From positions 366-64,365 of the forward strand of contig JBKCMS010000094.1 in NCBI GenBank assembly GCA_046300175.1: DNA of 64,000 nt. Direction: 5' to 3'. The DNA is from Pseudomonadota bacterium. Lineage in GTDB: Bacteria > Bdellovibrionota_C > UBA2361 > OMII01. Positions 12,201 to 44,064 of the stretch are shown one piece after another. Made by a program: the position numbers and the translations under genes. The notes beneath the pieces are model-generated. The model was not told the DNA's origin and did not search any database. It saw nothing but the letters and a program-made list of their open reading frames with translations. Position 1 is the stretch's first letter. Every line of letters starts with the position of its first letter.

Positions 12201-12222
12201 GAAAGAGGTAAGGAGCTGAGCT

Positions 12223-12741: not shown

Positions 12742-12758
12742 AGGAAGGTGAGGGGCTA

Positions 12759-13280
12759 ATGAGCATGGCTCGCAAGATACAGGGATTTGTTTTCGCGGTT
12801 GTTGCTACCTGCGCAAGCGCGTTAGTAGTGGATGGGGCGAGTGCTTTGCCGTTCAACGACGATATGGTGAATGTGCAGAAGCGCACGGGGGTGTTCATGC
12901 GACCAAAAGCCCCTGGTACGGTAGCGGTAGGAATGTCGCAGTATCACGTGGCCTCACGAGAGGCAGCTGAAGCTCTGACTAATCCGCTCAAGGGGGATGT
13001 AACCTCTACAGCAAATGGCAAGCGGCTGTTCACGATTAATTGTGCTCCGTGTCACGGTGATATCAGTAAGAAGCCTTATGAGCCCGGAGCAGTAGGCAAG
13101 AAGTCTTTGCAGACTCCTCCCGATCTGACTTCGGATATGTACAAGACGCGTACAGACGGCAGTATTTACGCCACTATCCATTTTGGCATTCGCTTAATGC
13201 CAGGCCACGGTTGGAAACTGTCTCCAACCGAGCATTGGGATCTGGTCAATTACGTTCGCAGTCAGCAAGGTGTTAATTAG
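12759..13280 (+). CDS. actE: Alternative Complex III subunit ActE (monohaem cytochrome c)
   Basis: Signal peptide plus a single CAPCH haem motif, in the fifth position of the operon. Confidence 0.85.
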   Translation: MSMARKIQGFVFAVVATCASALVVDGASALPFNDDMVNVQKRTGVFMRPKAPGTVAVGMSQYHVASREAAEALTNPLKGDVTSTANGKRLFTINCAPCHGDISKKPYEPGAVGKKSLQTPPDLTSDMYKTRTDGSIYATIHFGIRLMPGHGWKLSPTEHWDLVNYVRSQQGVN

Positions 13281-13295
13281 TAGAGGTAGGATAGG

Positions 13296-22559: not shown

Positions 22560-24290
22560 CTAAAGAACTCTGATCCTTGAAATCGACCAGTCAAACTGGG
22601 CGTGTCCGGTTTGGTAGATAAACAGACACGAAACGGTAGCTGGGTCTTTAAAAATAACTCGCACATCATTACGCGGGGAGTAATAGGGGATACCTCTTGA
22701 TAGAACCCTTAAAGCACCTTGCCAGGTTGGGTGCTCGGCTAGAATGACAGCGGCGGTCTGATCGCAAGATCCTCCGGCAATCCGAAGTCCGCGCGGATAA
22801 TCAGTGAAATATCGGCCCGGATCAAGGTCAACCCCGCGAATCTCTACCGGGGAACTAAAGCGGACTATAAGCAGTTCATCTCCGCGTTGTGAGCCGGTGC
22901 GAGTCGACCAGCGCCACGCATCATCCGCTGGACCTCCTTGGCTCACTTGTGATTGAGATGATATAGGATGCATTTCGACGACAGCATTTAGGCTTCTAAC
23001 ATCTCTGGACGGTAGGCGCGAGCTATCGCGAATGGTCTCTAGTTGCTTAGTGATGTCACCTTCCGATGCTGCGAGAGAGCGAAAAATAGCGGCCGAGGGC
23101 GACAAAATAAATGGTCGCAGTGTCTCGTTTTCGACGATGCCAACCCTTCTGAGCATGGGGCTATAGATATTCGGTGAGCCTACTACTGACAGGAGTGCTA
23201 CGGAACAGGCAAGTGGTACTAAGCTTATAGTTCTGAGATTAAGGACCAGGCTCGTGACTGTCATCCAAGCGCTAAGACCGAGTGCCACAGAGGTAATTGA
23301 GTAGCACGTTCCCCACGGTATCATACGTGACAGGCTCGGAAGGGGTGAAATCGCCGACAACGACTCAGTAAAGCAAGTGTTTAAGGACGCCAAGAGAGCG
23401 AGTACCATACCAACTTTGCCGGTGTATCTGGCCACTGCAGTGTTGTGCCTCCGGCGGAACCACCAGGCGATGATGGCCAGCACCAGCAAGGTAAAAGCCC
23501 GGTCACTATACTCAGCCCGCACAGCTGCTCGGTCGAGGGTATCAAATGGATAAGTAGGGCCCAGCAAGGGCCGCAGCGTGCCAAAGTTGCCCTCGAAGGG
23601 CAAAACATGCACTGACTTGGGATAGTGGGGCAACTCAGGCATCGGAGCGGTAACGGTTGCCAGTAAAGCTGGAGCAAGGGCTAACGACCAAGTTATTGCT
23701 CGCCGCTGACAGCTACCAGGAAGCGAAAGTGATAAAAGGTATGCCAGCCAGACCGCTGTTGCTACACTGGGCAGAGAGGCCAAATTAGCGCTGAAAGCAG
23801 CTTCGATGCTCACGATAAATAAGCCAATAAGGGGCAGATGGCCGTGCGTGCTGATCATCGCGATGTGCGCAGCGATAGCAACAAATGGAACCCAAGCCAC
23901 TGAACCGACCACTACTGGGTCAAGTCCGGTGACAAACACGATGAATGAAACAGCCAGTGCGGCGCCAGCCCAGAGCACTATTATGCTGGTAGGTCGTTGC
24001 ACTGAGCACCTGCGCAGAAATATATATGTGCCTATCAGCAAGAGGATCATTCCAGGAACGGGACGCTCGGCGAAATTGAAATTGGGACTGAGTAGTGAGG
24101 CAAGGCGCGTTAGATGATCTAGTCGCCACGAGTGATACCCGTTATTATTGAGGTTCACCAATGCAAACCAAGTTTTCTGCCGAAAATCTCCGGCAAGCGA
24201 AGATGATTGGAAGTAGGTCAGGAGCGCCAAGAGAGCGCCAGTAGCGAGTAAAAACCCGAGCATCGATACGGCGACGGCGCGTCTAATCAT
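22560..24290 (-). CDS. Polytopic membrane protein with a C-terminal discoidin (F5/8 type C)-like domain
   Basis: About 10 predicted transmembrane segments, then ...WRWSTRTGSQRGDELLIVRFSSPVEIRGVDLDPGRYFTDYPRGLRI..., which resembles galactose-binding/discoidin domains. I chose the ATG at 24290 (MIRRAVAV...), which forms an ATGA overlap with the upstream stop. The track start at 24359 lies inside the upstream gene. Confidence 0.6.
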   Translation of the reverse strand: MIRRAVAVSMLGFLLATGALLALLTYFQSSSLAGDFRQKTWFALVNLNNNGYHSWRLDHLTRLASLLSPNFNFAERPVPGMILLLIGTYIFLRRCSVQRPTSIIVLWAGAALAVSFIVFVTGLDPVVVGSVAWVPFVAIAAHIAMISTHGHLPLIGLFIVSIEAAFSANLASLPSVATAVWLAYLLSLSLPGSCQRRAITWSLALAPALLATVTAPMPELPHYPKSVHVLPFEGNFGTLRPLLGPTYPFDTLDRAAVRAEYSDRAFTLLVLAIIAWWFRRRHNTAVARYTGKVGMVLALLASLNTCFTESLSAISPLPSLSRMIPWGTCYSITSVALGLSAWMTVTSLVLNLRTISLVPLACSVALLSVVGSPNIYSPMLRRVGIVENETLRPFILSPSAAIFRSLAASEGDITKQLETIRDSSRLPSRDVRSLNAVVEMHPISSQSQVSQGGPADDAWRWSTRTGSQRGDELLIVRFSSPVEIRGVDLDPGRYFTDYPRGLRIAGGSCDQTAAVILAEHPTWQGALRVLSRGIPYYSPRNDVRVIFKDPATVSCLFIYQTGHAQFDWSISRIRVL

Positions 24291-26491
24291 GAGCTTCCTC
24301 CAATTAGCCGTTGCCACGGGGAGACGCTCTTTATGGTCACAGGAGTGCCAGGCGAGCATCCGGTTAGGGTTATCAGATTAAATCCTGCATCGCTGGCGCT
24401 TGCTCCGATTGAGCACGAGGTCGAGGAGATAAATGGAAAATGTCGAAACTTGAGAGTGAGGGATTCTGAGGTTGGGATAAAAGACACCGAGTTGGAGGTG
24501 TAGGTCAGGTCAGCTAGGCTGCCATTCATCGTATACGATGGCGAGTAGTTTAAACGCCTGAATACGAAAAATATCTCGCCACGCCACACCTGCTCGTATT
24601 CGTTCGGACGTTTCTTGAAGTAGTCTATCCACGTTGGCTCATGGGCCGTTACCACTGTGGCGTTCATCAGGTCTAGAAATTCTTTAATACCTTGATCTCC
24701 GCGGGAGATAAACGACTCCGGGATAGGTTGTTCGTATCTCCAGATGTTGTGTGCATAGCTCGATGCCACCATCGGAGTCTTTGCCCACAGCGGCAGTGGT
24801 GCGAGGTGCCCTCCACTGAACTGGTGCAATACACATCCGCTAAAAAGCACGCGCCCACCCGCGGCATGTTTAGATACGGCGCGAATAAAAGATGGAAGCT
24901 CTTTGTCTGCAAAGCTGTAGGTGTCATCTGCTCGATTAAGAACTACAGAGGTGGCCGTGAACGGACTTACTAAGACAAACGCTCCAGAGCAGATTGCCGC
25001 TAAGGTGAAAGTGATCCCACGTCCAGCTGAGGTAAAAAGTTGATACAGGAATTGACCTATGGGGATGGTGACTAAAATCGACGCGATGATAATCATTCGG
25101 TCAAGCTCTAGCTGCGGCTTGAGCGATACCCCAGCAGTGCCGAGTAGCAGCAGCCAGGAGCAGAGTGCAATCAGGTACCAGCGCGCAATACCAGAAAATG
25201 CTATCAGTGCCGGTATGGCGAAAACCACTAAGATTGGGTTGAGTGCGGTCGCGTTGCTTTGCCAATTAGCGAGGGCATTTTTTAGACTAAAAGTGCCGCT
25301 TTTGTGGCGATAGATCGTTGCACTAGCAGGGGAGTTGGGGGGAGCTAGAGAATTCGATGACTCACTTGAGGCTACTGGCGTTGGCGGGACAACAGCAGTG
25401 TGCGAATCGAGAAAGCGCCCCACATTGGAGACCTTCCACATCATACACATCCATGGCAGGTTTAAAGCTAACATTATGCACGCAGCGGCGAGATGTCGCT
25501 TTGAGAGAATTAGCTTAGGAATTCGTGGCAGCGCAACAAGTAGAATCGGTAGTGCTGCTATACCTGAGGGAGACCACAGTAGCATCAGAGTCGTCGTAAT
25601 GCATACGAGAACCATAGCGGCGCGAGATGGACGCTCAGCATGGATGAAGCGGATTGCTAATGCCGCAACCAAAGGAAATAGCGCAGTGCTGGTGATAAAA
25701 CCAACCGTGCCGTACTTTAGCGCCCAGCGAAACCAGAAGAGACCTGAACACAACGAGAGAGTGGTAGCAATAGAAGCAGCAACCACCGGAAGACCGAGCA
25801 TTCGTGCAGCTGCAAAGAGGCATGCAGGCGCAATAACCCAGAGCAGCCCGCCTATTAATATCGGATAAATAGCTTCCACGGGGAAAAGGTGAACGAGTGG
25901 GGCGCTTAGCAGGTATGCGTTTAGGGCTCCGGTGGCAAAAAAATCTCGCGCATCAAAGCCCGCGTTCCATAATGGAGACCAGAAAGGAATAGAAGGGAAA
26001 TTTTCGCGCAGGAGTTTTAACCTGAATAGAAACATCGGATGGTCATCTGAGAAGATCATCATCCCGTTAGCCGCGACTGAGAATGACCAGATGAGAAGTC
26101 CAATGACGACCATCGGCCAGCTAGCAAAGAAGCGTGACCAGAGTCGATAATGAAATAGAATGAAACAGATTATTGCGCCGACAAATAGCTCACCTCGGAT
26201 AGTTGGCCCCTTAAAGAGCCCCCAGGGTCTGTTCATCCAATCGGATATAAAGATGGCGAGTAAACCGAGCGTCCAGATACGCCTTTCTGTAAATGACTCC
26301 TTCTTGAGCCACCCTTGGCCGATTAAGTACGACACGCATGCTGCAGAAGCTGATAGCAAAAAGCCCGCGAGGACGAGATAGCGGCCAGCGGGGATCAGCG
26401 CTTCGTTTGAGCGTTCCCAGAGATACCAAGCACCTCCTGAAAGGCCCAGCACTATGAGCAGAAGTCCTGACGAGGCGAGGAGATGAATCAC
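24287..26491 (-). CDS. Large polytopic membrane protein, possibly a GT-C-fold glycosyltransferase/polymerase-like enzyme
   Basis: 734 aa with at least 12 hydrophobic segments. An acidic loop motif early in the protein (...IFSDDHPMF...) recalls GT-C enzymes. The C-terminal roughly 200 aa look soluble. No diagnostic motif recognised. Confidence 0.5.
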   Translation of the reverse strand: MIHLLASSGLLLIVLGLSGGAWYLWERSNEALIPAGRYLVLAGFLLSASAACVSYLIGQGWLKKESFTERRIWTLGLLAIFISDWMNRPWGLFKGPTIRGELFVGAIICFILFHYRLWSRFFASWPMVVIGLLIWSFSVAANGMMIFSDDHPMFLFRLKLLRENFPSIPFWSPLWNAGFDARDFFATGALNAYLLSAPLVHLFPVEAIYPILIGGLLWVIAPACLFAAARMLGLPVVAASIATTLSLCSGLFWFRWALKYGTVGFITSTALFPLVAALAIRFIHAERPSRAAMVLVCITTTLMLLWSPSGIAALPILLVALPRIPKLILSKRHLAAACIMLALNLPWMCMMWKVSNVGRFLDSHTAVVPPTPVASSESSNSLAPPNSPASATIYRHKSGTFSLKNALANWQSNATALNPILVVFAIPALIAFSGIARWYLIALCSWLLLLGTAGVSLKPQLELDRMIIIASILVTIPIGQFLYQLFTSAGRGITFTLAAICSGAFVLVSPFTATSVVLNRADDTYSFADKELPSFIRAVSKHAAGGRVLFSGCVLHQFSGGHLAPLPLWAKTPMVASSYAHNIWRYEQPIPESFISRGDQGIKEFLDLMNATVVTAHEPTWIDYFKKRPNEYEQVWRGEIFFVFRRLNYSPSYTMNGSLADLTYTSNSVSFIPTSESLTLKFRHFPFISSTSCSIGASASDAGFNLITLTGCSPGTPVTIKSVSPWQRLIGGSS

Positions 26492-26730: not shown

Positions 26731-27873
26731 CTAATTCTCGGTCTTGCTCGGATTCTGCACCCCGTGTTCGGAGTAGAAGCTATCGAAGCTAAAGACCGCA
26801 TCAGAAAAGGATGCCAGAGCTCGGTCGTTGTCGCGCTTATTTAGCGCATCTAGACCCTCTGCAAGCCTAGTCTTGATTATTTCCAGATTAGAGGGCTTAA
26901 AGTTTAGGTAGTGTTTTCCATCTGCCGATTTGCGAGCCTCGTAACACTGCAGGCTTGAGACTAGGTTGGCTACTGCTCCGAGGGTTTCCCCTTGCGCCTG
27001 CTGTATCAGAGCTTGAAGGGCAAAGTATCTAGGGCTCTCTTCTAGCTTCTCGCTGCATGCGAGGCACTGAGCTGCCGAGTTCGGATCTTGAAAGTGCAGA
27101 AATAATGCAGCTAGAGAGTGGTACGAAGCAGCGGCGCTCTCTTCGCTAAAAGATCTCCAGTCATGCTTGGGAAATAGCTCCTCGATGTTCATGCCGTCGA
27201 TTGCAGCGCGAAGGCATCGGGCCTTTGCCGCATTTGATAAGGTGCACAGTTGAGAAAGGGTCTCTGGATTCACAAGCGGTGTGATCCTGGCGGTCGTGCG
27301 CACATAGTCTCCATCGGAGATAGCGGTGATCATCGCTCTCGCCATGATTTCAATGACTGACTCGTTTCGGGCAGAGCATGCTGACGTCATCGTGCTTCGC
27401 GAAGTCGAAATACTCATCAGAGGCCATGCACTTGAGCTTTGAAGCATTGCCACGATCGATTCTGGTGAAAACTCAGTGGTGCTCACTGAGCTATTTGATA
27501 GAGCTGGAGCAACGATTATATGTTCGTTCAAATTTCTATTCTCTATCTCTGGCACAAGTTTTGAGAGGTCCGTCTCTGTGAATACTAAAGCGGAGTTAAC
27601 CATAAATACCCGCTTGCTGGCGGCGATTGATACCGCCTGCGCCACGGCTTCAGGGAGTGTCTCTGCCGTGATCCACATTCCAGTCGAGAATCCCTCTGGA
27701 GCCTGCTGGGTGCTTGCCACCAAGATATCCGCAAACGCTTTGACATCGTCGAGGAGTTGAGTTGTATCGACAACTGCAGCTTGCGTTCCGATTTCATCGA
27801 TAACTATCGCGCTATGCATAAGAACCCCGTTAACCATCGCGTTAAAAACAGGCTGAGCGCCTATAATTTCCAC
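26731..27873 (-). CDS. Hypothetical soluble protein (orphan)
   Basis: 380-aa ORF, co-directional with and 105 nt downstream of the TamB-Omp85 gene. The N-terminal roughly 100 aa are vaguely Roadblock/LC7-like and the C-terminal part is helical and TPR-like. I am not confident of any family match. Confidence 0.5.
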   Translation of the reverse strand: MEIIGAQPVFNAMVNGVLMHSAIVIDEIGTQAAVVDTTQLLDDVKAFADILVASTQQAPEGFSTGMWITAETLPEAVAQAVSIAASKRVFMVNSALVFTETDLSKLVPEIENRNLNEHIIVAPALSNSSVSTTEFSPESIVAMLQSSSAWPLMSISTSRSTMTSACSARNESVIEIMARAMITAISDGDYVRTTARITPLVNPETLSQLCTLSNAAKARCLRAAIDGMNIEELFPKHDWRSFSEESAAASYHSLAALFLHFQDPNSAAQCLACSEKLEESPRYFALQALIQQAQGETLGAVANLVSSLQCYEARKSADGKHYLNFKPSNLEIIKTRLAEGLDALNKRDNDRALASFSDAVFSFDSFYSEHGVQNPSKTEN

Positions 27874-27978: not shown

Positions 27979-30900
27979 TTAGAACATACTGCCGACTGAA
28001 AAATGGATTCTGACAGAGGGCTCTCCAGACTTCTCATCGAGTGGTCGCCCCAGGTCAAAGCCGATTGGGCCTATCGGCGAGAGATACTGGAATCCGACTC
28101 CAACACTGGTGCGCAGGTCTTCCAGATCAAAGTCCTGATGCTGCAGGAACACATTTCCGAAGTCAAAGAAGAGGTGAGTACTTACTGAATCATCGGCGAG
28201 GTATTGAAGTTGTGTTTTACCGGCTATCATCGCATCACCTCCGATGACTGCACCATCTGAGCCCCTAGGGCCGAGAGAATTCTCCCTAAACCCGCGCACG
28301 GTAGTACGACCACCGAGATAAAAGCGCTGAGTGATCGGAATCTCTTCTGTGTCGCCCCACGGTTTAGAGATGCCTCCACTCAAACCAAGGCCCAGAGAAT
28401 AACGCGATCCGTAGCCAGCGAGCGGTATAATGGCGCTACTCTTGGCAACCAGAGAGCCAAAGTTGGCTTCAGAGGCAATTTGCTGAAAGGCAACTTTAGG
28501 CTCCACTGTCACTGTATAGCCGGATCTGGGTAGGAGTGGGTCATCGCGTTTGTCGTATTTAATGATGCTCGAAAGGAAGCTTAGGCGCACCGAGCCGTCG
28601 TCTAAATCTGAGATGACAGCACCGGGTGTCACATCTTGTAGGTTATCGAACACAAGCGAGTGCCCCGCAGAGAACGCAAGTTCATTTTGTATCTGTCTAA
28701 ACAAGTAAGAACCCACCAAGAGTCGATCAATGTTGAACTCCTGAGTGCTTAACTCCTGTCGTTGGTAACGGACTTCTTCGGTCAGGGAATATTCGGAATC
28801 TAGGAAGGACGGATCTGAATATCGCAGGCTAGTAAAGCCCTGACTGATCAGACCTGAGCCACTTGGATTGATCTGCGCCTGGTCAAAATATGTATCAACA
28901 CGGAGGGATAGGGTACGTCCATCAGAAAAGAGAGATTTGTTTGTGGCCTCGCCAAAGGTATGCAGGCCGAATTCGGAATTAGCGCCTAGCCCTAGTTCGA
29001 GAGTCTGCATCGGGCGTTCCACAACTCGAATTATCAGTGCCTCGTTGGCTCCATCGATAGCTCCATCTTGGGCTGTAATCTCAACCCTTGAAAACAATCC
29101 CGTCCGCAAAAGCTCCCGTTTGGTGGCATTGATATCTTCAACTCGGTAGGGAGATGCAGGTTTTAGTTTCGTTGATCTAGCTGCAGTACGTTCGGAAATA
29201 GACACCAGTCCTTCATAGGTGATTGAGCCCACAATCGTTCGCTGTCCCGGCACAACCGACACACTAATAGCTGAGTAGTCATCAGTGGGTGTGGCAAATA
29301 CCGCAGGTGATAGAAAGCCTTCGTTGCTGAGAGACTCAATCAGCAGGTCGATATACATATTCACCCGCGGCAGAGATATCTGGCCAGATGGAGGTTTTGG
29401 GAGATTTAACCCCGCTGGGTACCCGCTGACTTCGCCTAAATTCAAACGTTGAGGTTCTCCCTCTTGGATTGTGAACACAACATCAACTGAGCTTGATTTT
29501 TCGCGTTGCCGAATATCATACGAAGCAGCAGCGTCGGGGTAGCCTTCGTGGTGATACACAGATACGATGGCATCGCGCAGGGCGTCTAAGCGAGCCGGAA
29601 TTGCAAAGGTTGCATCCATGGCAGCCACGTGCTCTTTTAAGCCCATAGAATTCATCGACTTGATCAGGTTCGATCTGCTTAGGTGAGAATTCCCGATCAA
29701 GCTTAAAGTCTTGATTTCCACCGGTGCCTCTTCAGTGATGGCAATCCGATAAACCAGTCTCTCTGGATCGGACCTATCTTCAGAGTGAGAAACCTGAGCA
29801 AAAAGGTAACCCTCTTCCTGATACATTCGTTCGATGTTTTGGATGAGCAGGGTAATAGTATTATTTCCGAATGGTCGTTTGCGAGAGAATAGATCGATAC
29901 TGTTTAGAAAGTCTTCTTCTGTGAATTCCTTATTGCCAGTGAATGTAAAGGATATAGCCTGTCTAAGCTCTGATGTTACTACTAGGGTGCTTGAATGGTT
30001 TACTATATCGTGCCGGTAAGAAGGCGTAATGCGGGCTGCGATATAACCTTCGTTGCGCAGTGAGAGTACGAGTGCCCGCTCTACGCTGGCGAGAATTGAT
30101 GAGGTAGCGAGGGTCTTAATAGGAGCAATGGAGGTAACCTTTTGTACTAGCTCCGGGCTCAATTCGTCTCCCTCGAATATCACTCCCGAAACAGTGCTTG
30201 GTTGTCGCTCTTGAATGGTAATTAGCAGATCGTGACAAAACTTATCTCCTGAGCGACAGGAGACAGATGCGGACGCTGCTGTAAAACCGTGCTCGTTCAT
30301 GTATGTAGCTATCTGATTTTGAATTAGTGTCAGGCTCTCTGGAGTGTTCGCTATACGAGATGATGGGCCAAGACGAGCGGCGTTCAGGATTGACTGTTCA
30401 CTGAATTGGTTTAATCCCTCGATCGAAATAGTTACGAACCGAGATTCCTCGGACCATACAGTATAGGTCAGGTCGCTCGACAGAATAGAGTTTTTCTGGG
30501 TGCTGACGGTCTGGAAGAAAGCATTAATGTCAAGCGCTGGGGTAAGAGAGTAAACACCACCTGCTCGTGAATTACTAACTGAGCTAAACAAGCTCTCGCC
30601 AAGTAGGGTCAGGCGCGGAGAGATATTCTTACGCGCCACTACGGCAGGCTCAATTGTGCCGGTGAACTGGTTATATGCAGGTTCGAATGAGAGGATGTCA
30701 AGCTTGGTCAGGTTGCGGAAGAATGCTTTAAAGCTTGAGAAGGAGGTATCAGAGATGAAAAATCGCTGGTCTGAGCCAAACTGTGAGTCCATGCGGCCCT
30801 TCATCGTGCTTTCACCAAGCGGGCGGGATGAAGTAAGAATTAGTAGCAGGTCGCTTTGGGAGAGCCCTCGGTCAGAGTTAAGTGAAAACTTAGGAGCAGA

Positions 30901-33708
30901 GAGCGGACCTGATGCGTCGAGTATCACCAGTATACTCTCACCTGTTGGTGCTCGCAGGTTGCCTTCACCCACCAGCTCAAGGTGCGGAATAAGTGATGAA
31001 GGTTTAAAAGTTAGTCCTCCTGAAGTGATGTCAAATCGATTACCTTTCAGGCCAGCCCAGCCGCTGAGAATCTGCATGGAGCCTTCCAGAGCAGGTGATG
31101 TCACAGTGCCTCTAGCACGGAGATTAGTGTTGAGCTCGGCACTAAGAAATGGTGTCACAACGAATATATTCCGAGGGGCGGAAATTGCTACGTCAAGCTC
31201 CAGGTCCACTGAACTCTTCTTCGCTGCCGGCTGGATACGAGTCGGTAGGAAGTATCCGGAAATTGTGCTCATAATTAGCTTGTTTAGATCGAAGTCCTTA
31301 GCTACCTCCGCAAAAGTAATGTCTAAAGCACCTGAGAGAGTTTGGCGCTGTTTCTGATTAACGCCGAGAGCTAAGTCTCCCGAGAAAGTGATCGTAGCGT
31401 CCTCAATCGGTTCAATAGTCACCTCTTTTAGCTCGGTGCGTAGAGAGGAGTTGCCCGGTTCAAAGGGCAGAAGAGTGCCAGAGGCCGTAAAGGTGCCACC
31501 ATTCACTGAGCCTCCAAGTTTATTGATCCGAATAGCTCGCCCTGACAGAGAAAAATCCCCTGATATATGGTGGCCTCCTAGCTCCGGGGATGAAACACCG
31601 AACTGACCGTTAATTAGCTGGGCTGTTCCGGTTACTAATGGCTGCGATAAAGCGCCCTGAATGGATACATCGGTTTTTAATAGTCCACGGAGATCATCCA
31701 TGGCCGGTAAAAGAGGCAGCAGTGAGCTTAATTCAAGGCGTCCTCGTGCGGACATAGCAAAACCTTTGGCAATGCCCAGCTCACCATCAAGCTCCAGAGC
31801 GCTTTCCAGGGTAGCCAACGAGAGATTCTTGAGTTGCAATGCCCCGTTTCGTATCGGTATGCGCGACTCAGGCGGTGCTGATAGAGAGTAGGGGGCACAA
31901 CCTATTGCTAAAGAGTGCAGAATTACTTCACCGCTCCCTGCAAGAATCGCCTGTAGAGGAAATGTATAGGATAGTGAAGCTCCTACCTTACTGCACTCAT
32001 CTTCGTGACCTACGATCTCTTTCAGCTTGACCTCGGGTTGTGTGAAGCGCAGCTTGCCTTCGTAGCTCTTAGCAAAATCAACGGTGAGCTCCGCGCCAGC
32101 TCTTAGAGGAGAATTGGGTAGGGTAACTCTAAGTACTCCATCTTTAAGATTGGCTCGACCTGATAAAGGATACCCTGCGTGAAGCGCCGGCGAACGCACA
32201 GTTATATCCCCATCGGCAAGTAGAGTATTCAATCCTAGCGGCCCACGTAGCGCTATCTGAGAGGTGAAGGCTAGCGGACTTAGTGTCTCTTTGGTTACTG
32301 GAAGGGACAACGGGTAGCGATAATCGACGAGACTCAAGGAGCTGTCCTTTAGTGAAGCATCCGGTGATGATAGGTCGATCAGACCGCGCCACTTGAGCAC
32401 TCCTTGCTGTTTGTTGGAGCTCTCTACTGCGATGTCAGCGGCGGTTGGTGATACATGTATCTGAATCCGACTTGGTCCCAGTGAGAATCCCTGCATCAGG
32501 AGGTCATCTGATGTGATGGTAATATCGGTTGAGACGCCCGCCGGCCCCTCTGTGACATCGATCGTAGCGTTTGCTTTGGTTACCGCGAACGGCCCGTACT
32601 CAAATCGAGGTACCTTAGCGCTAAACCCGGCAGCTAGGCCCGCATCAGATAGCTTTAGGGGCTTAGTTGAGGTAAGCACCGCCTGTTCGTTTGAGGCATT
32701 AAGATCGGTCAGAGTGATGACCGGGTCTCCTCGGTTTACGTCGATTGTGAGTCCGCCAGACAGCTTTGGAAAATTTAGCTGGGATGCAAACGGCAGCGCT
32801 ATGGAGAAGGCGGTGTCGGGGCTACTCTGAATACTTCCGGTTAGTAGAGGGCTGCCAAGGGTCCCCGATATTGTGGTGTTGCCGATAATCAGGCCACGTA
32901 GCCAATCGGGAAGACCTATATAGTCGGGGGATACCGTGAAGGAGGTGTTACCTGAGAAAGTTGAGCTCTGGTCAGATAGAGCGACCCCAGTTGCTTCAAT
33001 ATGAGAGCGGTCGCGACCGAGGGTTAGAGACCTAAAAACGGTCTGCGCATCCTCAATCATTATTGAGCCAGCTAGTGGGCCGAGAAATAATTCCTGCGGA
33101 GGAGAACCAGGAGTGTCACCGTAAGTTGTGTAGCGGAAATCAGCGATACGGGGAGTGAGGGCATAATATTCACCATCTCGTTTAACGCTAAGAGATACGC
33201 CAGAGCCTGATATCTCGCTAGAACCAAAGGATTCGCGCAGGAATGATTTCCTGACCTCAAGGGAGTCCAAGATAACACGCCATCTGTCTGGCAACTGTTT
33301 CTCCGGTGGGAGCGGTTTTGTTAACTGATCGATAAATCTGAATGTAACTGAATTAGGACCAACGCCATCGGCCGTGCCATCATTAAGGATAAGATTGCGC
33401 AGATGAACCTTGCGGTCACGAATCTCAGAGATATCGATCTTGGTCGTAATAGTCTTGAAAGATAGTCTCGGCACACCTTTCTCGACGATTCGAACGTTAC
33501 GGGCGCGAGCTCTCAAGGTGGAGAACGAGAGGGAGAGAGAGTCAAAAGCAAGCGAGCAATCGCACGAGGCTATAACCTCCTCCTCAAGAGCGCTAACCAC
33601 CTCATTTATCAACCACTGTTTTGCTAGGAGTATGACTGCCCCGGTGGACAGGCCAAGGAAGAGGCCGATAGAAGCCAGTGTTTTGCCGCGAAACAGTCTA
33701 CGTATCAC
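27979..33708 (-). CDS. Single-chain TamB-like (AsmA-like/DUF490) + POTRA + Omp85 beta-barrel fusion protein
   Basis: Uninterrupted 1909-aa ORF.
- aa 1 to about 1085: signal anchor (LASIGLFLGLSTGAVILLA), a long beta-rich body, and a DUF490-type end (...SAPKFSLNSDRGLSQSDLLLILTSSRPLG..., ...ARKNISPRLTLLGESLF...).
- aa about 1090-1565: repeated POTRA-like units ending in ...EGY(I/L/P)...
- aa about 1565-1909: Omp85 barrel (...RFYLGGRTTVRGFRENSLGP..., ...VGVGFQYLSPIGPIGFDLGRPL..., terminal ...SVGSMF). Confidence 0.8.
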   Translation of the reverse strand: MIRRLFRGKTLASIGLFLGLSTGAVILLAKQWLINEVVSALEEEVIASCDCSLAFDSLSLSFSTLRARARNVRIVEKGVPRLSFKTITTKIDISEIRDRKVHLRNLILNDGTADGVGPNSVTFRFIDQLTKPLPPEKQLPDRWRVILDSLEVRKSFLRESFGSSEISGSGVSLSVKRDGEYYALTPRIADFRYTTYGDTPGSPPQELFLGPLAGSIMIEDAQTVFRSLTLGRDRSHIEATGVALSDQSSTFSGNTSFTVSPDYIGLPDWLRGLIIGNTTISGTLGSPLLTGSIQSSPDTAFSIALPFASQLNFPKLSGGLTIDVNRGDPVITLTDLNASNEQAVLTSTKPLKLSDAGLAAGFSAKVPRFEYGPFAVTKANATIDVTEGPAGVSTDITITSDDLLMQGFSLGPSRIQIHVSPTAADIAVESSNKQQGVLKWRGLIDLSSPDASLKDSSLSLVDYRYPLSLPVTKETLSPLAFTSQIALRGPLGLNTLLADGDITVRSPALHAGYPLSGRANLKDGVLRVTLPNSPLRAGAELTVDFAKSYEGKLRFTQPEVKLKEIVGHEDECSKVGASLSYTFPLQAILAGSGEVILHSLAIGCAPYSLSAPPESRIPIRNGALQLKNLSLATLESALELDGELGIAKGFAMSARGRLELSSLLPLLPAMDDLRGLLKTDVSIQGALSQPLVTGTAQLINGQFGVSSPELGGHHISGDFSLSGRAIRINKLGGSVNGGTFTASGTLLPFEPGNSSLRTELKEVTIEPIEDATITFSGDLALGVNQKQRQTLSGALDITFAEVAKDFDLNKLIMSTISGYFLPTRIQPAAKKSSVDLELDVAISAPRNIFVVTPFLSAELNTNLRARGTVTSPALEGSMQILSGWAGLKGNRFDITSGGLTFKPSSLIPHLELVGEGNLRAPTGESILVILDASGPLSAPKFSLNSDRGLSQSDLLLILTSSRPLGESTMKGRMDSQFGSDQRFFISDTSFSSFKAFFRNLTKLDILSFEPAYNQFTGTIEPAVVARKNISPRLTLLGESLFSSVSNSRAGGVYSLTPALDINAFFQTVSTQKNSILSSDLTYTVWSEESRFVTISIEGLNQFSEQSILNAARLGPSSRIANTPESLTLIQNQIATYMNEHGFTAASASVSCRSGDKFCHDLLITIQERQPSTVSGVIFEGDELSPELVQKVTSIAPIKTLATSSILASVERALVLSLRNEGYIAARITPSYRHDIVNHSSTLVVTSELRQAISFTFTGNKEFTEEDFLNSIDLFSRKRPFGNNTITLLIQNIERMYQEEGYLFAQVSHSEDRSDPERLVYRIAITEEAPVEIKTLSLIGNSHLSRSNLIKSMNSMGLKEHVAAMDATFAIPARLDALRDAIVSVYHHEGYPDAAASYDIRQREKSSSVDVVFTIQEGEPQRLNLGEVSGYPAGLNLPKPPSGQISLPRVNMYIDLLIESLSNEGFLSPAVFATPTDDYSAISVSVVPGQRTIVGSITYEGLVSISERTAARSTKLKPASPYRVEDINATKRELLRTGLFSRVEITAQDGAIDGANEALIIRVVERPMQTLELGLGANSEFGLHTFGEATNKSLFSDGRTLSLRVDTYFDQAQINPSGSGLISQGFTSLRYSDPSFLDSEYSLTEEVRYQRQELSTQEFNIDRLLVGSYLFRQIQNELAFSAGHSLVFDNLQDVTPGAVISDLDDGSVRLSFLSSIIKYDKRDDPLLPRSGYTVTVEPKVAFQQIASEANFGSLVAKSSAIIPLAGYGSRYSLGLGLSGGISKPWGDTEEIPITQRFYLGGRTTVRGFRENSLGPRGSDGAVIGGDAMIAGKTQLQYLADDSVSTHLFFDFGNVFLQHQDFDLEDLRTSVGVGFQYLSPIGPIGFDLGRPLDEKSGEPSVRIHFSVGSMF

Positions 33709-37220: not shown

Positions 37221-39929
37221 ATGGCGCCGCAATTTCAGATTAGCAAAAGCTGTGGTCCTGTAATGAACGTAGTTGAGAAGGACGCCCTAGGGATAGATAG
37301 AGAAGAGGATGCATCCCCAGACACGGGAGCGCTGCGCAAGTCGGCAACACGATCGGTAGGGGGAACCCCGTCGGCAAGCAAGCTCAATCGTCTTCCTGCG
37401 GTTAGGGATCGGGGGCTTATACCCAAAATAGACATTAGGCGTTACCTGAGCGAAGGGTCCAAAGCCTTGCAGACTTTTGTCGCGCCGCTTGAAGAGCAGG
37501 TGAGGCGTTGCGGCAAGTACAGAAGCCACAAGCATCGCAGCTCTGCCCGAGCGCAGGCTAAGGTAGCAGAGCTAGTTCTCGAGGTTATTCGTCAGCTAGC
37601 CCACAAAGAGACTGGAGTCTTCAATCTCGAAGCTCCAGTGTCGCAGCTCCTAAATTCTCTTTTTGCCGGATCTGTTGAAGTCGGGATAGTTACCGGCTTG
37701 GCTCGCAGAGCTAACAAAGCGTTGGTGCTCAGGGATATGCGGCAGCGAGAGGCCTTAACTGATGGTGCCCGGGCGCAATCAGCGCGTGGACTGGCCTACG
37801 ATGTGGCCCGCGAGCTTGACGAATTGCTTATGCTGCTCAAGTGGTATGTTCGCCGCAAGATGAGCCTTTGCGCGCTTGAGCTTGAAGCTAACGGTGAGTT
37901 CGCACTGCTCGATTCTGGGCTATCAGCAACCAGCGACGATCACGATCTGCTGTTCTCGCTTGATGTTATGCACGACCATCAGGTCTTTGGGGTCAAAGGG
38001 TGTCTGTTAACCTGTGGCCTGAAGTTGCTGGGGCGCGATGGTGAAGCGTTGTGGCTGCGGGTGGCGATTCATGCTGGAGGAGCTCCGGTGATGGTCCGGC
38101 CCGAGTGGTCAAGCTGGACCGACCCCGGGGGCGCGGAGGCGGTTGAGCTGCTTCCAGAGCACGCACCGTTCTGCTCGCTTGTACCGATCAGACCAAACTC
38201 GCAAAGGCTGGTGATTGATGAGGTGCGGGCATTTGTTCCATACGCAGCCCTTCAATTGCCCGCAGGGCGTTCGGAAGTAGAGGTGGTGGTTACGGTGATT
38301 GATGGAGCCGGGCAAGAGGTAGTAAGTGCTACCCGGCTTGAAAGTATCTGTGTTCCCCATCGCCAACTCAGTCTAGCTCCTGTACCTGCTCCGCACTCAC
38401 TGGGAATGTGGCCACACGATGTTGTGTCTGGTGACAAGATCTCTGAACTAACGGTCACCTCAGGTTTCAAACCGGTAGCGGGTTGGGAGCGTCACTCGAT
38501 ATCGGTTGCTTTTGACCTATCGCTATTTATGCACGCAGGTGAAAGCGTAATGCTCGAGTGCCGATTTGTGAATTCAAGGGGTGAAGTAGTTGAATTGGCC
38601 TCTCTCGGCATGCCCTTTATCGCCAGCGAGCTGAATGTCGCAGTCGAGTCGCTATCATCATACCGCTATCGCCGGGTGTTGCACCCCAGAGGGGCTTGGA
38701 CCCTATATCAGGGGTTGTGCATCGATATCCCTGTCGAATTTCTTTTGCTGGCTCCCGGGTCTCATGAGATCACATGTGAGCTGGTGGTTGTTTCCGCAGA
38801 CGAACGGGTGCTGTGCGGGGATATGAGCCGAGTGCAAGTGCAGGTGCCTGACAGAGAGCCAAAGACAGAGGTCTCCAGCGCTAATCATGAATCCGAGCAG
38901 CGTAATGGAGCAGTATCAAGGAAGATTGCGCATGCGGGACTTCAAATTGATTCTTTGGATGTAGAACCTGTGTGGCAGAGCGGGACAGATGACTGCATCA
39001 GAGTGGAGGCTCGCTTTTCTCCTCGCAGTCATGCTCAGCAGTTGGCGGACCTCGCCGCCGGACGGGTGGGGGAGCTTTTTGCACCTTATCGTGTGGAGAT
39101 TTCTTTGGAGCGTGAAGACGGCCACGTATTGCTTCAGGCATACTCTGATTCCCTGGGGATGAGCTTCAAGCCGGTAACGAGGGCCGTTTGCGTTGACCCG
39201 TATACAGGACACCCAGACCACACGGTGGTTGCTAATTTCAGACGCGAGGAGGTGTTGGGTTGGTCGTTGGGCTCAGATAACAGCCGAGCTGCCGCTAAAT
39301 CGAGGATATTTGCCCGGGTGATCGCGTTTTCATTAGCGGGAGAGGTGCTGATATCCGAGAGTAAGGAGCTGTTTGTAAAGCCGCTAAGCGATGGAACTAG
39401 GCAGGTTGTGCAGATCACAGAGCCAGCTCCTCGTATTGTGGATGTGTCTGCTTTTGCCAATGCCCAAGGAGAGCGATTAACAGCGCGTGTATTGGTCAAC
39501 ATGCCAGTTAGTGAAGGGGGCGAAGAGAGCGCTATGGTTCGATTCGTGCTCTGCTTACCGGGCGGACGGCGGGATGTGATCGCGACCAAAGAGATTCGCC
39601 CGCTCAATACCGGGGTATGGACGCGCCAGGTACCAGGCCTCTGTCAGTACGGAGTTGATTGTGAGTATTCACTCCGTGGAATCACAACAACTACTGGTTG
39701 TTCTATAGAGGCCACGGTGGTGACGCAAGCTGGAGAGGCTCTTCATTCTCTAGAGCAGCCGATTAGGAGCGCCGGAGTGCTCTCAGAGCTCGATGAAAAT
39801 GCGGCTGATTTTGATTCGGATTTAGTCCCCACGGAAGCCTTGCTCGATAAGCAGATGGCGAATGCAGCAGAAGCTGTCTCTGTGGTTCCTTCCAAAGGGC
39901 TATTGGGGCGACTGTTTAGTAGAGCATAA
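37221..39929 (+). CDS. Large orphan protein with a helical basic N-terminal region and about 6-7 repeated beta-rich modules
   Basis: 902-aa ORF with no motif I recognise. Strand-like segments recur roughly every 90-100 aa: EVEVVVTVIDGAGQEVVSATR, VMLECRFVNSRGEVVELAS, EITCELVVVSADERVLCGD, YRVEISLEREDGHVLLQAY, IFARVIAFSLAGEVLISES, MVRFVLCLPGGRRDVIATK, SIEATVVTQAGEALHSL. The start codon is uncertain because no clear RBS is visible. Confidence 0.6.
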   Translation: MAPQFQISKSCGPVMNVVEKDALGIDREEDASPDTGALRKSATRSVGGTPSASKLNRLPAVRDRGLIPKIDIRRYLSEGSKALQTFVAPLEEQVRRCGKYRSHKHRSSARAQAKVAELVLEVIRQLAHKETGVFNLEAPVSQLLNSLFAGSVEVGIVTGLARRANKALVLRDMRQREALTDGARAQSARGLAYDVARELDELLMLLKWYVRRKMSLCALELEANGEFALLDSGLSATSDDHDLLFSLDVMHDHQVFGVKGCLLTCGLKLLGRDGEALWLRVAIHAGGAPVMVRPEWSSWTDPGGAEAVELLPEHAPFCSLVPIRPNSQRLVIDEVRAFVPYAALQLPAGRSEVEVVVTVIDGAGQEVVSATRLESICVPHRQLSLAPVPAPHSLGMWPHDVVSGDKISELTVTSGFKPVAGWERHSISVAFDLSLFMHAGESVMLECRFVNSRGEVVELASLGMPFIASELNVAVESLSSYRYRRVLHPRGAWTLYQGLCIDIPVEFLLLAPGSHEITCELVVVSADERVLCGDMSRVQVQVPDREPKTEVSSANHESEQRNGAVSRKIAHAGLQIDSLDVEPVWQSGTDDCIRVEARFSPRSHAQQLADLAAGRVGELFAPYRVEISLEREDGHVLLQAYSDSLGMSFKPVTRAVCVDPYTGHPDHTVVANFRREEVLGWSLGSDNSRAAAKSRIFARVIAFSLAGEVLISESKELFVKPLSDGTRQVVQITEPAPRIVDVSAFANAQGERLTARVLVNMPVSEGGEESAMVRFVLCLPGGRRDVIATKEIRPLNTGVWTRQVPGLCQYGVDCEYSLRGITTTTGCSIEATVVTQAGEALHSLEQPIRSAGVLSELDENAADFDSDLVPTEALLDKQMANAAEAVSVVPSKGLLGRLFSRA

Positions 39930-41154: not shown

Positions 41155-42465
41155 GTGGTGAACCGTGCATTACGCCCACCTTCAACAGATCCAAAACCTT
41201 CCAGGTCTGATCCTGCCTATCTAAGCGTTACCGAGGTGACGCGCCTGGTTAACGATATACTGGAGCTGCAGTTTCCGCAGCTGCTTTTTCGTGGCGAGAT
41301 ATCACAACTTACTGTGGCTCAGAGTGGGCATATTTACTTTACGATAAAAGACGACGGCGCGCAGCTTGCTTGTGCGATGTGGGCCGGAGTTGCTCGGACG
41401 CTATCGTTTAAGCCTAAAGTCGGGATGTCGGTTCGGTGTCACGGTCGGCCGAACGTTTACGCTCAATCAGGGAGATTCCAGGTGGTAGTCCACCGACTCT
41501 TTGAAGATGGTGAAGGCGAATTGCGCCGAAGATTTCTAGAGTTGCAGAAGCGTCTTGAGGATGAGGGATTCTTTGCGCCAGAGCGAAAGCGGCAGTTGCC
41601 GTTCCTGCCAAGAGCGGTGGGGATAGTAACCTCCAGCACAGGGGCGGTCATTCACGATATGATGGTTAAAATTCGTGAGCGCTTTCCAGCTATGGTGGTT
41701 TATCTGGCCGATACACGGGTGCAGGGTGATGGGGCAGCTACCGAGATCGCAGATGCGATCCGTAGGCTCGACAGGTCAGGTTTAGTTGATGTTTTAATTG
41801 TGGCGCGTGGAGGCGGTTCGCTTGAAGACCTGTGGGCATTTAATGAGGAAGAGGTAGTTAAGGCTGTATTCTCGTGCTCGCGTCCGGTTATCTCAGGTGT
41901 AGGTCACGAAGTGGATGTGACGCTGTGTGATTTGGCGGCTGACGTACGGGCTCCGACCCCCACGGCGGCAGCCGAGATGGTTGTTCCACACGTTGCTGAT
42001 CTGCTCGCTAGGATTAATGAGCTGTCCAGAAGATTGGCCGATACGGATCGCTGGTACCAGCCACGAGTACAGAGGCTTGATGATCTGTCGCTTCGACTAA
42101 CCTCGCGCTTGTCAGCAGTTGCAATCGAGGCCGGATTGCGGGTGCGAGCTGCCGAGTCAGCCTTGGGACGAATTAAACCTGACCGTGTGATGGAGGTGCT
42201 GAGACTAAAGTTGCGAAATTTCGAGGGCCGCTTATTGGATGCAGCTGGGCGAGCGTGCCGCGATCGGGCCAGTCGTATTGAGGGGCTGAGCGCTCGATTG
42301 CAAGCGCTTAGCCCTCTTGCGGTTCTTGAAAGAGGTTTTAGTGTCCTGTATTCAGGAGGCGCTCACGTTCGTTCTGTGCACGATGTGAAAGTTGGAGAGC
42401 CACTTGAGGTGCGTGTGGTTGATGGTGTCATTGCCGGTGTAGTTAATAAAGTGAGAGGGGAGTAG
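41155..42465 (+). CDS. xseA: Exodeoxyribonuclease VII large subunit
   Basis: N-terminal OB-fold (...LSVTEVTRLVNDILE...FRGEISQL...SGHIYFTIKD...), ...IVTSSTGAVIHD..., ...ARGGGSLEDLWAFN..., ...GVGHEVD... Confidence 0.9.
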   Translation: MVNRALRPPSTDPKPSRSDPAYLSVTEVTRLVNDILELQFPQLLFRGEISQLTVAQSGHIYFTIKDDGAQLACAMWAGVARTLSFKPKVGMSVRCHGRPNVYAQSGRFQVVVHRLFEDGEGELRRRFLELQKRLEDEGFFAPERKRQLPFLPRAVGIVTSSTGAVIHDMMVKIRERFPAMVVYLADTRVQGDGAATEIADAIRRLDRSGLVDVLIVARGGGSLEDLWAFNEEEVVKAVFSCSRPVISGVGHEVDVTLCDLAADVRAPTPTAAAEMVVPHVADLLARINELSRRLADTDRWYQPRVQRLDDLSLRLTSRLSAVAIEAGLRVRAAESALGRIKPDRVMEVLRLKLRNFEGRLLDAAGRACRDRASRIEGLSARLQALSPLAVLERGFSVLYSGGAHVRSVHDVKVGEPLEVRVVDGVIAGVVNKVRGE

Positions 42466-42470
42466 GGTAT

Positions 42471-42749
42471 ATGGGTAAGGCGAAAGGTGATCAAGGCCCG
42501 GGCAAGAGTGTTTCACTTGATGATATTATGAAAGGAGATGTGACGCCTGACGGCATCGCGCAGCTCACCTTCGAGGAGGCACTGATGCTACTGGAGGGGG
42601 TAGTTGCCGCTGTAGAGTCCGGTAGTCTTCCGCTCGATCAGGCAATCGGTTCCTACGAGCGCGGTACATTGCTCGTGCAACATCTTAGGGGTTTGTTATC
42701 CGGAGCCGAAGAGAAGTTGCGGTTACTGAGCGAGGTCAAGGCGGGATAG
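42471..42749 (+). CDS. xseB: Exodeoxyribonuclease VII small subunit
   Basis: ...LTFEEALMLLEGVVAAVESGSLPLDQAIGSYERGTLLVQHL... is typical XseB, and the gene sits immediately downstream of xseA. Confidence 0.88.
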   Translation: MGKAKGDQGPGKSVSLDDIMKGDVTPDGIAQLTFEEALMLLEGVVAAVESGSLPLDQAIGSYERGTLLVQHLRGLLSGAEEKLRLLSEVKAG

Positions 42750-42803
42750 AAAACGGTGATTGCGGACACAGCTATAGAAATAGGTTTACAAAAAGGTGCA
42801 GAA

Positions 42804-43439
42804 ATGAACCACGGTCATGTTTCAGTGATTACCCACCCCTTGGTGCAGAACAAGTTAACCCTGATGCGTATGGAAGAAACTTCAACGGCTGAGTTTCGTC
42901 GCTTATTGCGTGAAGTCAGTATGTTGTTGGCGTATGAGGTAACTCGCGATTTGCCGTTAAAGCTCATCAGCATTAAGACCCCAGTAGACACGATGCAGGC
43001 CCCGGTCTTAGCGGGGAAGGACTTAACGCTTGTTTCCATTTTGCGGGCCGGGAATGGTATCTTAGAGGGGATGCTTGAGCTGATACCGTCAGCACGAGTG
43101 GGACACATAGGGCTTTATCGTGACCCGGAGACGTTACAACCGGTTGAGTACTACTTTAAGATGCCCTCGGATATCAGTGAACGAGATGTGCTTGTAGTGG
43201 ACCCTATGCTGGCTACGGGTGGCTCTGCGGCAGCAGCGGTGACTCGCCTCAAGAAACTCGCACCCCGTTCGATACGATTCGTCTGTCTGATAGCCTCGCC
43301 AGAGGGTGTTAATACCTTTCGCTCGGAGCATCCGGATGTGCCGATCTTCACGGCCGCAGTTGATGATAAGCTAAATGAGCACGGATATATCGTCCCAGGT
43401 CTAGGCGATGCCGGAGATAGGATATACGGGACCAAGTAG
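42804..43439 (+). CDS. upp: Uracil phosphoribosyltransferase
   Basis: ...[12 protein letters not shown]..., ...ILRAGNG..., PRPP motif ...[14 protein letters not shown]..., C-terminal ...[17 protein letters not shown]. Start chosen at the MNHGHV... codon (42804). Confidence 0.92.
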
Positions 43440-43748
43440 CAAAGGTTCGACTCCGGCTTGATAGCGCTGGAGGATATTGAACCTAAAAAGAGCAGTTGCG
43501 GGTTTCAGAATGGCGCATCTGGCTAAAATCACTACGGCTTTTGAATTTTCGGTGCTCACCCTGACGGTGCCAGGGTTCCGCGCCGAAAATATCAAAATCC
43601 TTTGTGCTTTTAACCAGCTGCTCCATTCTGCCCCACCTTAACTGCTCTTTTCAGGATAATCCTAGCACACCGGACCCTAGACTGGGGGTCTAATACAGCA
43701 GACACCCCAACACTCCAGTTAATTATGATGCACTAGCTTACTCAAAGG

Positions 43749-44054
43749 TTACGCCTTTTTATTTAACTTATTAAAATCCTTCAGGATTACATCCTTAACC
43801 CCAAGCCCCTTGCCCTCAGATATAGAGGATGCCAGGGCTTCGTTGAGCATATCGCGATACATCGCCTCTTCGTTACTACCCGATAACAATCCATTCTGCG
43901 GAACAGTACTCCACATAGATTCAAGCATCTGCTGAACAAGCAGCGCTTCGAACTGCTGCGCTGCAACCTCTGGCTGCTGCGCTACCGGCATGCTTTTTTT
44001 AAGGTTACGCGCTTCTACACCTAAGGATCCCCCAAGCGACTTAATCGATGTCAT
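43749..44054 (-). CDS. flgJ: Flagellar rod-binding protein (FlgJ N-terminal-domain-only homologue)
   Basis: 101 aa. ...QQFEALLVQQMLESMW... is the Rod_binding signature. No muramidase domain is present. Confidence 0.75.
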   Translation of the reverse strand: MTSIKSLGGSLGVEARNLKKSMPVAQQPEVAAQQFEALLVQQMLESMWSTVPQNGLLSGSNEEAMYRDMLNEALASSISEGKGLGVKDVILKDFNKLNKKA

Positions 44055-44064
44055 AATCTCACCC

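Follow-up and report, generated by a model that had tools for sequence, protein, structure and literature searches.

A fused TamB–POTRA–Omp85 protein of uncultured Bdellovibrionota and its probable role as a single-chain envelope machine

Results

One open reading frame holds a TamB-like module, six POTRA domains and an Omp85 barrel

The DNA analysed here, referred to as the window, is a stretch of 64,000 nucleotides (contig JBKCMS010000094.1, positions 366 to 64,365) from an uncultured Bdellovibrionota bacterium. Its minus strand carries, at 27979..33708, a single unbroken open reading frame (ORF) with a GTG start, 1909 codons and a stop, whose predicted product of 206.2 kDa joins a TamB-like module, a series of POTRA domains and an Omp85 β-barrel in one polypeptide. 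The initial annotation had described one uninterrupted ORF of 1909 amino acids (aa) with three modules in that order, and the ORF check together with Pfam, hhalign and AlphaFold2 (AF2) models agrees with this description at near-identical boundaries. Profile scans detect PF04357, PF07244 and PF01103 in the same protein, and AF2 predicts a TamB-type body, POTRA units and a 16-strand barrel. The two NCBI copies of the identical protein (MFN4895617.1 and MFN5062892.1) are labelled ‘TamB domain-containing protein’ and assigned to a ‘Pseudomonadota bacterium’. The gene and the parts of its product are arranged as follows.

27979..33708, minus strand: whole fused gene, 1909 codons plus stop, 206.2 kDa
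33622..33678, minus strand: N-terminal signal-anchor, aa 11-29 (LASIGLFLGLSTGAVILLA), within the helix of aa 8-48 (hydrophobicity, AF2, family conservation)
30874..33558, minus strand: TamB-like β-groove (beta-taco) body, aa 51-945 (AF2, Foldseek, hhalign)
30460..31509, minus strand: Pfam TamB/DUF490 match, aa 734-1083 (profile positions 6-378 of 381)
30706..30858, minus strand: helical insert of the DUF490 end, aa 951-1001, with SDRGLSQSDLLLILTSSR (AF2, profile alignment to E. coli TamB)
30454..30696, minus strand: six short strands T1-T6, aa 1005-1085, the last being ILSSDLTYTVW (AF2, stand-alone TamB C-termini)
30433..30453, minus strand: junction linker, aa 1086-1092, SEESRFV (family alignment, AF2)
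29014..30432, minus strand: six POTRA domains, aa 1093-1565 (AF2 secondary structure, Pfam POTRA)
27982..29007, minus strand: 16-strand Omp85 barrel, aa 1568-1909 (Pfam, AF2, Foldseek, invariant residues)
28288-28299, minus strand: loop-6 VRGF motif, aa 1804-1807, within the Omp85 barrel

The TamB-like module

The TamB/DUF490 profile PF04357 matches aa 734-1083 with 103.1 bits against a gathering cut-off of 22.4, and the preceding aa 1-733 have no Pfam match. When a profile of the N-terminal part, built from 224 family members, was compared by hhalign with stand-alone TamB proteins, aa 28-733 aligned to residues 5-927 over 659 columns with a probability of 99.7% and an E value of 2.9e-27. The AF2 model of aa 1-1100 has a mean pLDDT (predicted local distance difference test score) of 81.8 and consists of a helix at 8-48, unbroken strands from 51 to 945 that form the groove (pLDDT mostly 85-95), helices at 951-1001 and six strands at 1005-1082. 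The top Foldseek matches of this model in the Protein Data Bank (PDB) are TamB chains, namely 9xdc_B (E 4e-10) and 9xdd_B, which are the TamB of E. coli TamAB, and 5vtg_A (TM-score 0.76), which is the crystal structure of the TamB beta-taco. The N-terminal half is TamB-homologous along its whole length, and the initial proposal of a signal anchor, a TamB-like body and a DUF490 end is borne out.

At the DUF490 end, a profile of aa 700-1092 aligns to E. coli TamB 925-1155 (E 7.5e-6), and the helix-forming stretch SDRGLSQSDLLLILTSSR falls opposite SDPAMSQQAALSYLLRGQ of E. coli TamB. PMC12800296 describes the C-terminal domain of E. coli TamB as two helices plus six strands, a layout that the modelled end of the fused module broadly matches, and PMC13119328 describes a conserved amphipathic helix of this domain as required for function. 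The marks of a TamB protein that are present are a DUF490 match above cut-off, a signal anchor with a long groove, and helices plus six amphipathic strands with a β-signal-like end; the free C-terminus on a separate polypeptide is missing, and the chain instead enters POTRA1 after ~7 residues. The NCBIfam model NF047952 (ATportTamB) scored 27.7 bits and did not reach its cut-off of 825, and the module is a distant member of the TamB family and not the proteobacterial equivalog.

The only strongly hydrophobic 19-mer in the protein is aa 11-29 (Kyte-Doolittle 2.14), which is conserved across the family. There are only six cysteines, arranged in three pairs (49/51, 572/604 and 1151/1158) and all invariant in a 15-sequence alignment; these pairs are possible disulfides, compatible with a periplasmic location. 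Taken together, the paired invariant cysteines, the lone hydrophobic segment and the invariant terminal Phe fit the topology suggested at the outset, in which the chain starts in the inner membrane and ends as a barrel in the outer membrane.

The POTRA domains and the barrel

The AF2 model of aa 720-1909 (mean pLDDT 76.5, predicted TM-score 0.62) resolves six β-α-α-β-β POTRA units, at aa 1093-1166, 1172-1247, 1251-1325, 1331-1415, 1422-1486 and 1492-1565, where about five had originally been counted. These are followed by 16 barrel strands (1568-1909). Pfam recognises POTRA (PF07244) in four stretches with 96 bits and Omp85 (PF01103) at aa 1627-1909 with 162.8 bits. The barrel ends ...IHFSVGSMF, and R1805, G1806, F1807 and F1909 do not vary across the 15-sequence alignment, in keeping with the earlier assignment of an Omp85 barrel with a C-terminal aromatic residue.

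Which Omp85 protein does this half resemble most? Foldseek places BamA at the top (E 5e-41) and TamA at ~1e-28, and the best NCBIfam match is TIGR03303, the BamA equivalog, with 268.2 bits over aa 1240-1909 against a cut-off of 297.15. The TamA model NF047950 reaches 112.9 bits against a cut-off of 625, and the six POTRA domains compare with three in TamA. In the alignment of aa 1239-1816 with E. coli BamA 81-672, BamA residue 81 falls at aa 1239, which means that POTRA2-6 correspond to POTRA1-5 of BamA and that POTRA1 is extra at the N-terminal side. One extra N-terminal POTRA followed by five BamA-like domains is the layout described for the regular Omp85 in some delta-proteobacteria (PMC2878562).

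Distribution of the fused gene

A word-indexed search returned 57 full-length homologues with 34-100% identity and the same set of three Pfam matches. When one genome per GTDB species was scanned, ~70 species representatives carried the full-length fused gene; all are uncultured metagenome-assembled genomes (MAGs), many come from lakes, and most bear the label Bdellovibrionota, Bdellovibrionales, Oligoflexia or delta proteobacterium. Where the whole gene was present, the fused ORF (~1900 aa) was intact in ~55 independent contigs that stem from different studies, and a frameshift or misjoin is thereby ruled out. A phmmer search with aa 720-1909 against 1.84 billion proteins (cluster representatives at 50% identity) gave 660 matches at E <= 1e-30; among the best 150 representatives, 124 are at least 1700 aa long, and nearly all match in one stretch that runs from DUF490 through POTRA to barrel. 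The fusion is real and old and has been kept in well over a hundred related lineages. When the POTRA-barrel half alone served as query for homologues, the matches were limited to distant BamAs (~24% identity) and to pieces of fused proteins from short contigs.

Two cases stand apart. One MAG, JBIKUD01 (bin153), has two loci (L026 and L067), a full fused gene (35% identity) and a barrel fragment (50%) at a contig end, and this pair could reflect a paralogue or bin contamination. At another locus, L019, which has a coverage of ~1x, the fused ORF is interrupted and 1182 aa are left, probably through a sequencing error or as a pseudogene.

The junction and its predicted pairing with the barrel

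The 17 C-termini of stand-alone TamB proteins that were compared end in a strand of the type GxDxxFxxxF. At the equivalent place the fused protein has SSDLTYTVW (D1079...W1085), followed by SEESRFV, after which POTRA1 begins with its first strand. Neither D1079 nor T1083 varies in the 15-sequence alignment, W1085 is replaced by Leu or Ile in many family members, and by its motif this last TamB strand resembles the β-signal of stand-alone TamB. The junction is ungapped and conserved across the family, with a linker of ~7 residues, and it holds no signal-peptide remnant.

Covariation between this strand and the barrel was analysed in an alignment of 224 full-length sequences (effective number 170). 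In mean-field direct coupling analysis (mfDCA), true neighbours among the barrel strands stand out, and 13 of the 20 top strand pairs are adjacent ones. The antiparallel band between TamB strand 6 and barrel β1 scored 4.01, which is rank 10 among 231 strand pairs and a z of 3.9 relative to the 208 non-adjacent pairs, and its top residue pairs (1084-1570, 1075-1577, 1081-1571 and 1085-1569) lie in one antiparallel register. In the same analysis of 224 sequences, the β1-β16 seam and the pair of TamB strand 1 with β16 were at background. These couplings are suggestive of a pairing between TamB strand 6 and β1 of the protein's own barrel. According to PMC12800296 and PMC13119328, cryo-EM (cryogenic electron microscopy) of the E. 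coli proteins shows the last TamB strand paired with β1 of TamA in a hybrid barrel, and in vivo cysteine cross-links confirm this; the same strand pairing has been modelled for Borrelia BamA-TamB (PMC13382580).

Split relatives and a second fused family

Two complete stand-alone relatives of the Omp85 half were present among the phmmer matches, P0253 (846 aa) and P0255 (935 aa). Each has its own signal peptide and is 30-31% identical to the fused Omp85 half over ~780 aa, and each lies directly 3' of a separate tamB, with a stop/start overlap ATGA at the locus of P0253 (L081) and a gap of 2 nt at that of P0255 (L082). Over 627 residues, the fused TamB module shares 25% identity with the TamB encoded ahead of P0255. 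Because these closest unfused relatives have tamB directly upstream of omp85, the fusion follows the local operon order, and from the sequence comparison the fused gene looks like a tamB-omp85 operon that has shed the stop codon of tamB and the signal peptide of Omp85. The tamB-first order is also that of Bd2494-Bd2495 in B. bacteriovorus and MXAN_5764-5763 in M. xanthus (PMC3983030), and some Myxococcales MAGs have the reverse order, omp85 then tamB, as separate genes. The module order had initially been called inverted, which is correct relative to the tamA-tamB order of E. coli and other proteobacteria but does not apply within this lineage, where the unfused relatives already run from tamB to omp85. 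Both split loci are followed by a thioredoxin-thiS-thiG-thiE string. This is not the neighbourhood seen around the fused gene, so the two forms occupy different genomic contexts.

A second and only distantly related family of fused TamB-POTRA-Omp85 proteins, 2086-2307 aa long, was found in Acidobacteriota (for example HKX28079.1 of Blastocatellia and HMF97754.1 of Vicinamibacterales).

Outside the window: Acidobacteriota fused proteins P0058, P0059, P0060, P0062, P0063, P0066 and P0070

These proteins have the same module order and likewise keep a β-signal-like TamB strand before the first POTRA. Unlike the family described here, they show 22-27% identity in local matches only, their TamB module is longer and has AsmA, DUF748 and YhdP-type N-terminal matches, and their linker measures 15-35 aa as against ~7. 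This family may be an independent fusion. Acidobacterial operons have been described as bamA then tamB (PMC4494059), and with that order the Acidobacteriota fusion may have needed a rearrangement.

Genomic neighbourhood

The fused gene belongs to a conserved co-directional string of 2-oxoacid dehydrogenase E2, lipA, an rsmI-like methylase, the fused gene, a 380-aa protein and two polytopic membrane proteins. Housekeeping genes make up the wider window, namely alternative complex III, plsX, fabG, glyA, nrdR, ribBA and xseA. No second copy of Omp85 or TamB was found in the 64-kb window by tblastn with four modules, no known accessory of BAM (β-barrel assembly machinery) or TAM (translocation and assembly module) was recognised by Pfam among the neighbour genes checked, which are housekeeping genes and three unassigned proteins, and scans for promoters and terminators around the fused gene stayed at chance level. 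The other features of the window are listed below.

26731..27873, minus strand: ORF of 380 aa without family assignment, downstream of the fused gene in the same direction, conserved in 36 related loci
24287-26491, minus strand: polytopic membrane protein of 734 aa, no Pfam family
22560-24359, minus strand: polytopic membrane protein of 599 aa, no Pfam family
37221-39929, plus strand: ORF of 902 aa, no Pfam match
10806-14576, plus strand: alternative complex III genes (NrfD-like ActC, ActD, cytochrome c subunit)

The 380-aa protein has no signal peptide and no Pfam family, and its match to TPR/ARM-like repeats is very weak (E 0.099). In most of the 36 loci, where it lies downstream on the same strand, the distance to the fused gene is ~1.4 kb, so another gene may sit between. 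In B. bacteriovorus, tamB-omp85 is transcribed together with the gene of a cytoplasmic TPR protein, Bd2492, which binds MglA and RomR (PMC3983030). Related loci have the 734-aa protein downstream of the fused gene in 26 cases and the 599-aa protein in 17, and both proteins may be related to the envelope or to glycans; the soluble C-terminal part of the 599-aa protein gives a weak hint of an allantoicase repeat (E 0.012). The 902-aa ORF is divergent and stands upstream of the E2-lipA-fused-gene string in 18 related loci. The alternative complex III genes precede plsX and fabG and form an ordinary respiratory and housekeeping context. The plus-strand GC skew is positive over the first ~44 kb of the window and negative from there to 64 kb, with a cumulative peak near 44 kb (switch region ~42000-46000). 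Genes at 20-37 kb lie on the minus strand while the skew is positive, so the switch does not simply follow gene orientation, and it could be terminus-like with respect to replication.

Discussion

A single-chain TamB-Omp85 machine

We consider it probable that the fused protein is a single-chain TamB-Omp85 envelope machine of the type represented by TAM in Proteobacteria and by BamA-TamB in spirochaetes, born of a tamB-omp85 gene fusion. How would such a chain be arranged in the cell? If it follows the E. coli TamAB structures, the N-terminal helix would remain in the inner membrane and the β-groove would cross the periplasm, conducting phospholipids and perhaps also guiding nascent outer-membrane proteins along as on a slide. 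The outer membrane would take up the six C-terminal strands of TamB, the last of which would pair antiparallel with the protein's own β1 and form an intramolecular hybrid barrel. The end of TamB strand 6 (1085) would thereby come to lie beside the start of β1 (1569) at the periplasmic face, so that the six POTRA domains would have to close a loop under the barrel. This closed loop is a prediction that depends on the pairing of strand 6 with β1, and it is open to cross-linking or cryo-EM. The function would be outer-membrane biogenesis through anterograde lipid supply and possibly the assembly of barrel proteins, with docking and a 1:1 stoichiometry fixed covalently.

Several points weigh against this interpretation. 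Mutual information with average product correction (MI-APC) finds the same strand pair in the same register, but only at rank 25 of 231 with a z of 1.6; the coevolution signal depends on the method, and the effective number of sequences is low. The scores stay under the NCBIfam cut-offs for BamA, TamA and TamB alike, which makes the fused protein an equivalog of none of them. Roles in lipid transport and barrel assembly are predicted by analogy with homologues, and the protein could be a housekeeping insertase or an accessory paralogue. There is also a small chance that the chain is cleaved at the junction after assembly.

Alternative interpretations

The alternative that survives best, although we regard it as unlikely, is that the protein is the only and essential BamA of its host with a TamB attached. 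Each insertion site would in that case be tied to the inner membrane, and the primary role would be to insert outer-membrane proteins rather than to transport lipid. TIGR03303, at 268 bits, is the best NCBIfam match and stands far above TamA, and the top Foldseek matches of the barrel half are BamA, but the TIGR03303 score stays under the cut-off of 297. Typical neighbours of bamA are rseP, skp and lpxD; this locus has none of the three and is flanked by the rsmI-like gene, lipA, E2 and unknown membrane proteins. The window holds no second Omp85, and each species representative except bin153 has one locus, a count from scan patterns that are family-specific and would miss a canonical BamA. An extra POTRA plus five BamA-like ones is a regular Omp85 layout in some delta-proteobacteria, but extra-POTRA Omp85 proteins of Myxococcales and Acidobacteria have been reported beside a regular BamA, and seven-POTRA Omp85 proteins that adjoin DUF490 genes coexist with one as well (PMC2878562). 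The only BamA of Borrelia does pair with a TamB (PMC13382580). Against such a role in the fused protein, a lateral gate always filled by TamB strands would hinder the insertion of substrates.

In a still more doubtful version, the fused protein would be the only Omp85/BamA of the clade with its gate permanently filled by its own TamB strands in a covalently closed six-POTRA ring. If this were true, all growth of the outer membrane in lipid and protein would take place at fixed trans-envelope machines anchored in the inner membrane, envelope biogenesis would be unlike that by the freely diffusing BAM complex of model bacteria, and the view of outer-membrane growth in the clade would change.

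It is improbable that the fusion is a precursor which, after export and barrel assembly, is cut at or near the junction to release TamB and Omp85 as two ordinary subunits. Type V secretion offers examples of outer-membrane polyproteins that are processed, and a complete C-terminal strand of the stand-alone type has been kept, so that a cut at ~1085-1092 would give products like the stand-alone counterparts. The linker of ~7 residues, however, has no recognisable protease site and lies beside membrane-embedded strands, and no protease gene is conserved in the neighbourhood. In addition, W1085, the would-be C-terminal aromatic residue, is Leu or Ile in many members, which suggests that a free aromatic C-terminus is no longer selected.

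We see very little room for secretion of the type V or PlpD-like kind, in which the β-rich N-terminal part would be a passenger exported to the cell surface and not a periplasmic bridge. Omp85 proteins with N-terminal domains other than POTRA exist, PlpD being an example (PMC4104836), and the first 733 aa have no Pfam match. The whole N-terminal body is nevertheless TamB-homologous, with ~660 aligned columns, a DUF490 domain and a beta-taco fold, and on this ground the passenger model was rejected. The chain begins with a long hydrophobic anchor of the uncleaved type where type Vd proteins have a cleavable signal peptide, it has six POTRA domains and not one, its N-terminal part is no non-TamB passenger, and the split relatives encode that same part as an ordinary tamB.

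Weakest of all, and rejected, is an assembly error or frameshift that joined two neighbouring genes, a concern already raised at first sight: very long chimeric ORFs in MAGs are sometimes false and one related locus at ~1x coverage is broken, but the unbroken ORF in ~55 independent MAG contigs, the 124 diverse full-length representatives, the conserved ungapped junction and the lack of the signal-peptide remnant that a plain tamB-omp85 read-through would leave exclude a joining error.

Significance

In the literature, the hybrid barrel of TAM is viewed either as a stable working state (PMC13119328) or as one of two alternating states (PMC12800296), and a further question in this debate is whether lipids, proteins or both are moved. 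A Rosetta-stone argument can be made here, since a joining of the partners at the very strand of the hybrid barrel has evolved at least once and perhaps a second time. With so short a linker the strand cannot move far, which argues that a permanently docked 1:1 TamB-Omp85 is viable and selectable. A single-chain TAM could also ease expression and stoichiometry in structural and transport assays, and a chain of 206 kDa with one end in each membrane poses a puzzle of assembly.

Comparison with known systems

The components and their partnership are already well known. A fused TamB-Omp85 was not found described in the literature searched, including the 2014/2015 evolutionary surveys (Heinz), the 2023 AsmA-like and 2024 TAM reviews and the 2026 TamAB structures, and the covalent single-chain form appears undescribed there. 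Bacterial DUF490 proteins are classed by length up to 1650-1700 aa in PMC13119328, which does not mention a fused class. Databases name the architecture in generic terms, as ‘TamB domain-containing protein’ or ‘outer membrane protein insertion porin family’.

Split pairs in the same gene order include Bd2494-Bd2495 and MXAN_5764-5763, which by their descriptions (PMC3983030) also share the extra-POTRA Omp85; for Bd2495, seven POTRA domains have been reported, with a TPR gene upstream. Unlike the fused gene, these pairs and those of P0253 and P0255 are two genes with a stop codon between them and an Omp85 that has its own signal peptide.

E. coli TamA-TamB (9xdc/9xdd; PMC12800296, PMC13119328) shares with the fused protein the signal anchor, the beta-taco groove and the DUF490 helices plus six strands, as well as an Omp85 partner in which POTRA domains precede a barrel of 16 strands. 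The pairing of the last TamB strand with TamA β1 has its counterpart here only tentatively, by coevolution. E. coli has two polypeptides where the fused protein is one chain with a join of ~7 residues, TamA has three POTRA domains as against six, and the gene order is tamA then tamB in E. coli and tamB then omp85 here. The TamB module is ~1086 aa long as compared with 1259 aa in E. coli, the Omp85 part, unlike TamA, lacks its own signal peptide, and the barrel is closer to BamA than to TamA (268 vs 113 bits).

In this last respect the protein recalls BamA-TamB of Borrelia burgdorferi (BB0794/BB0795; PMC5582053, PMC11361582, PMC13382580), where a TamB and a BamA-type Omp85 with several POTRA domains are likewise encoded together and the C-terminal strands of TamB are modelled as completing the BamA barrel (PMC13382580). 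The Borrelia proteins differ in being two separate polypeptides with five POTRA domains, and their BamA, partnered by BamB and BamD, is essential as the only insertase.

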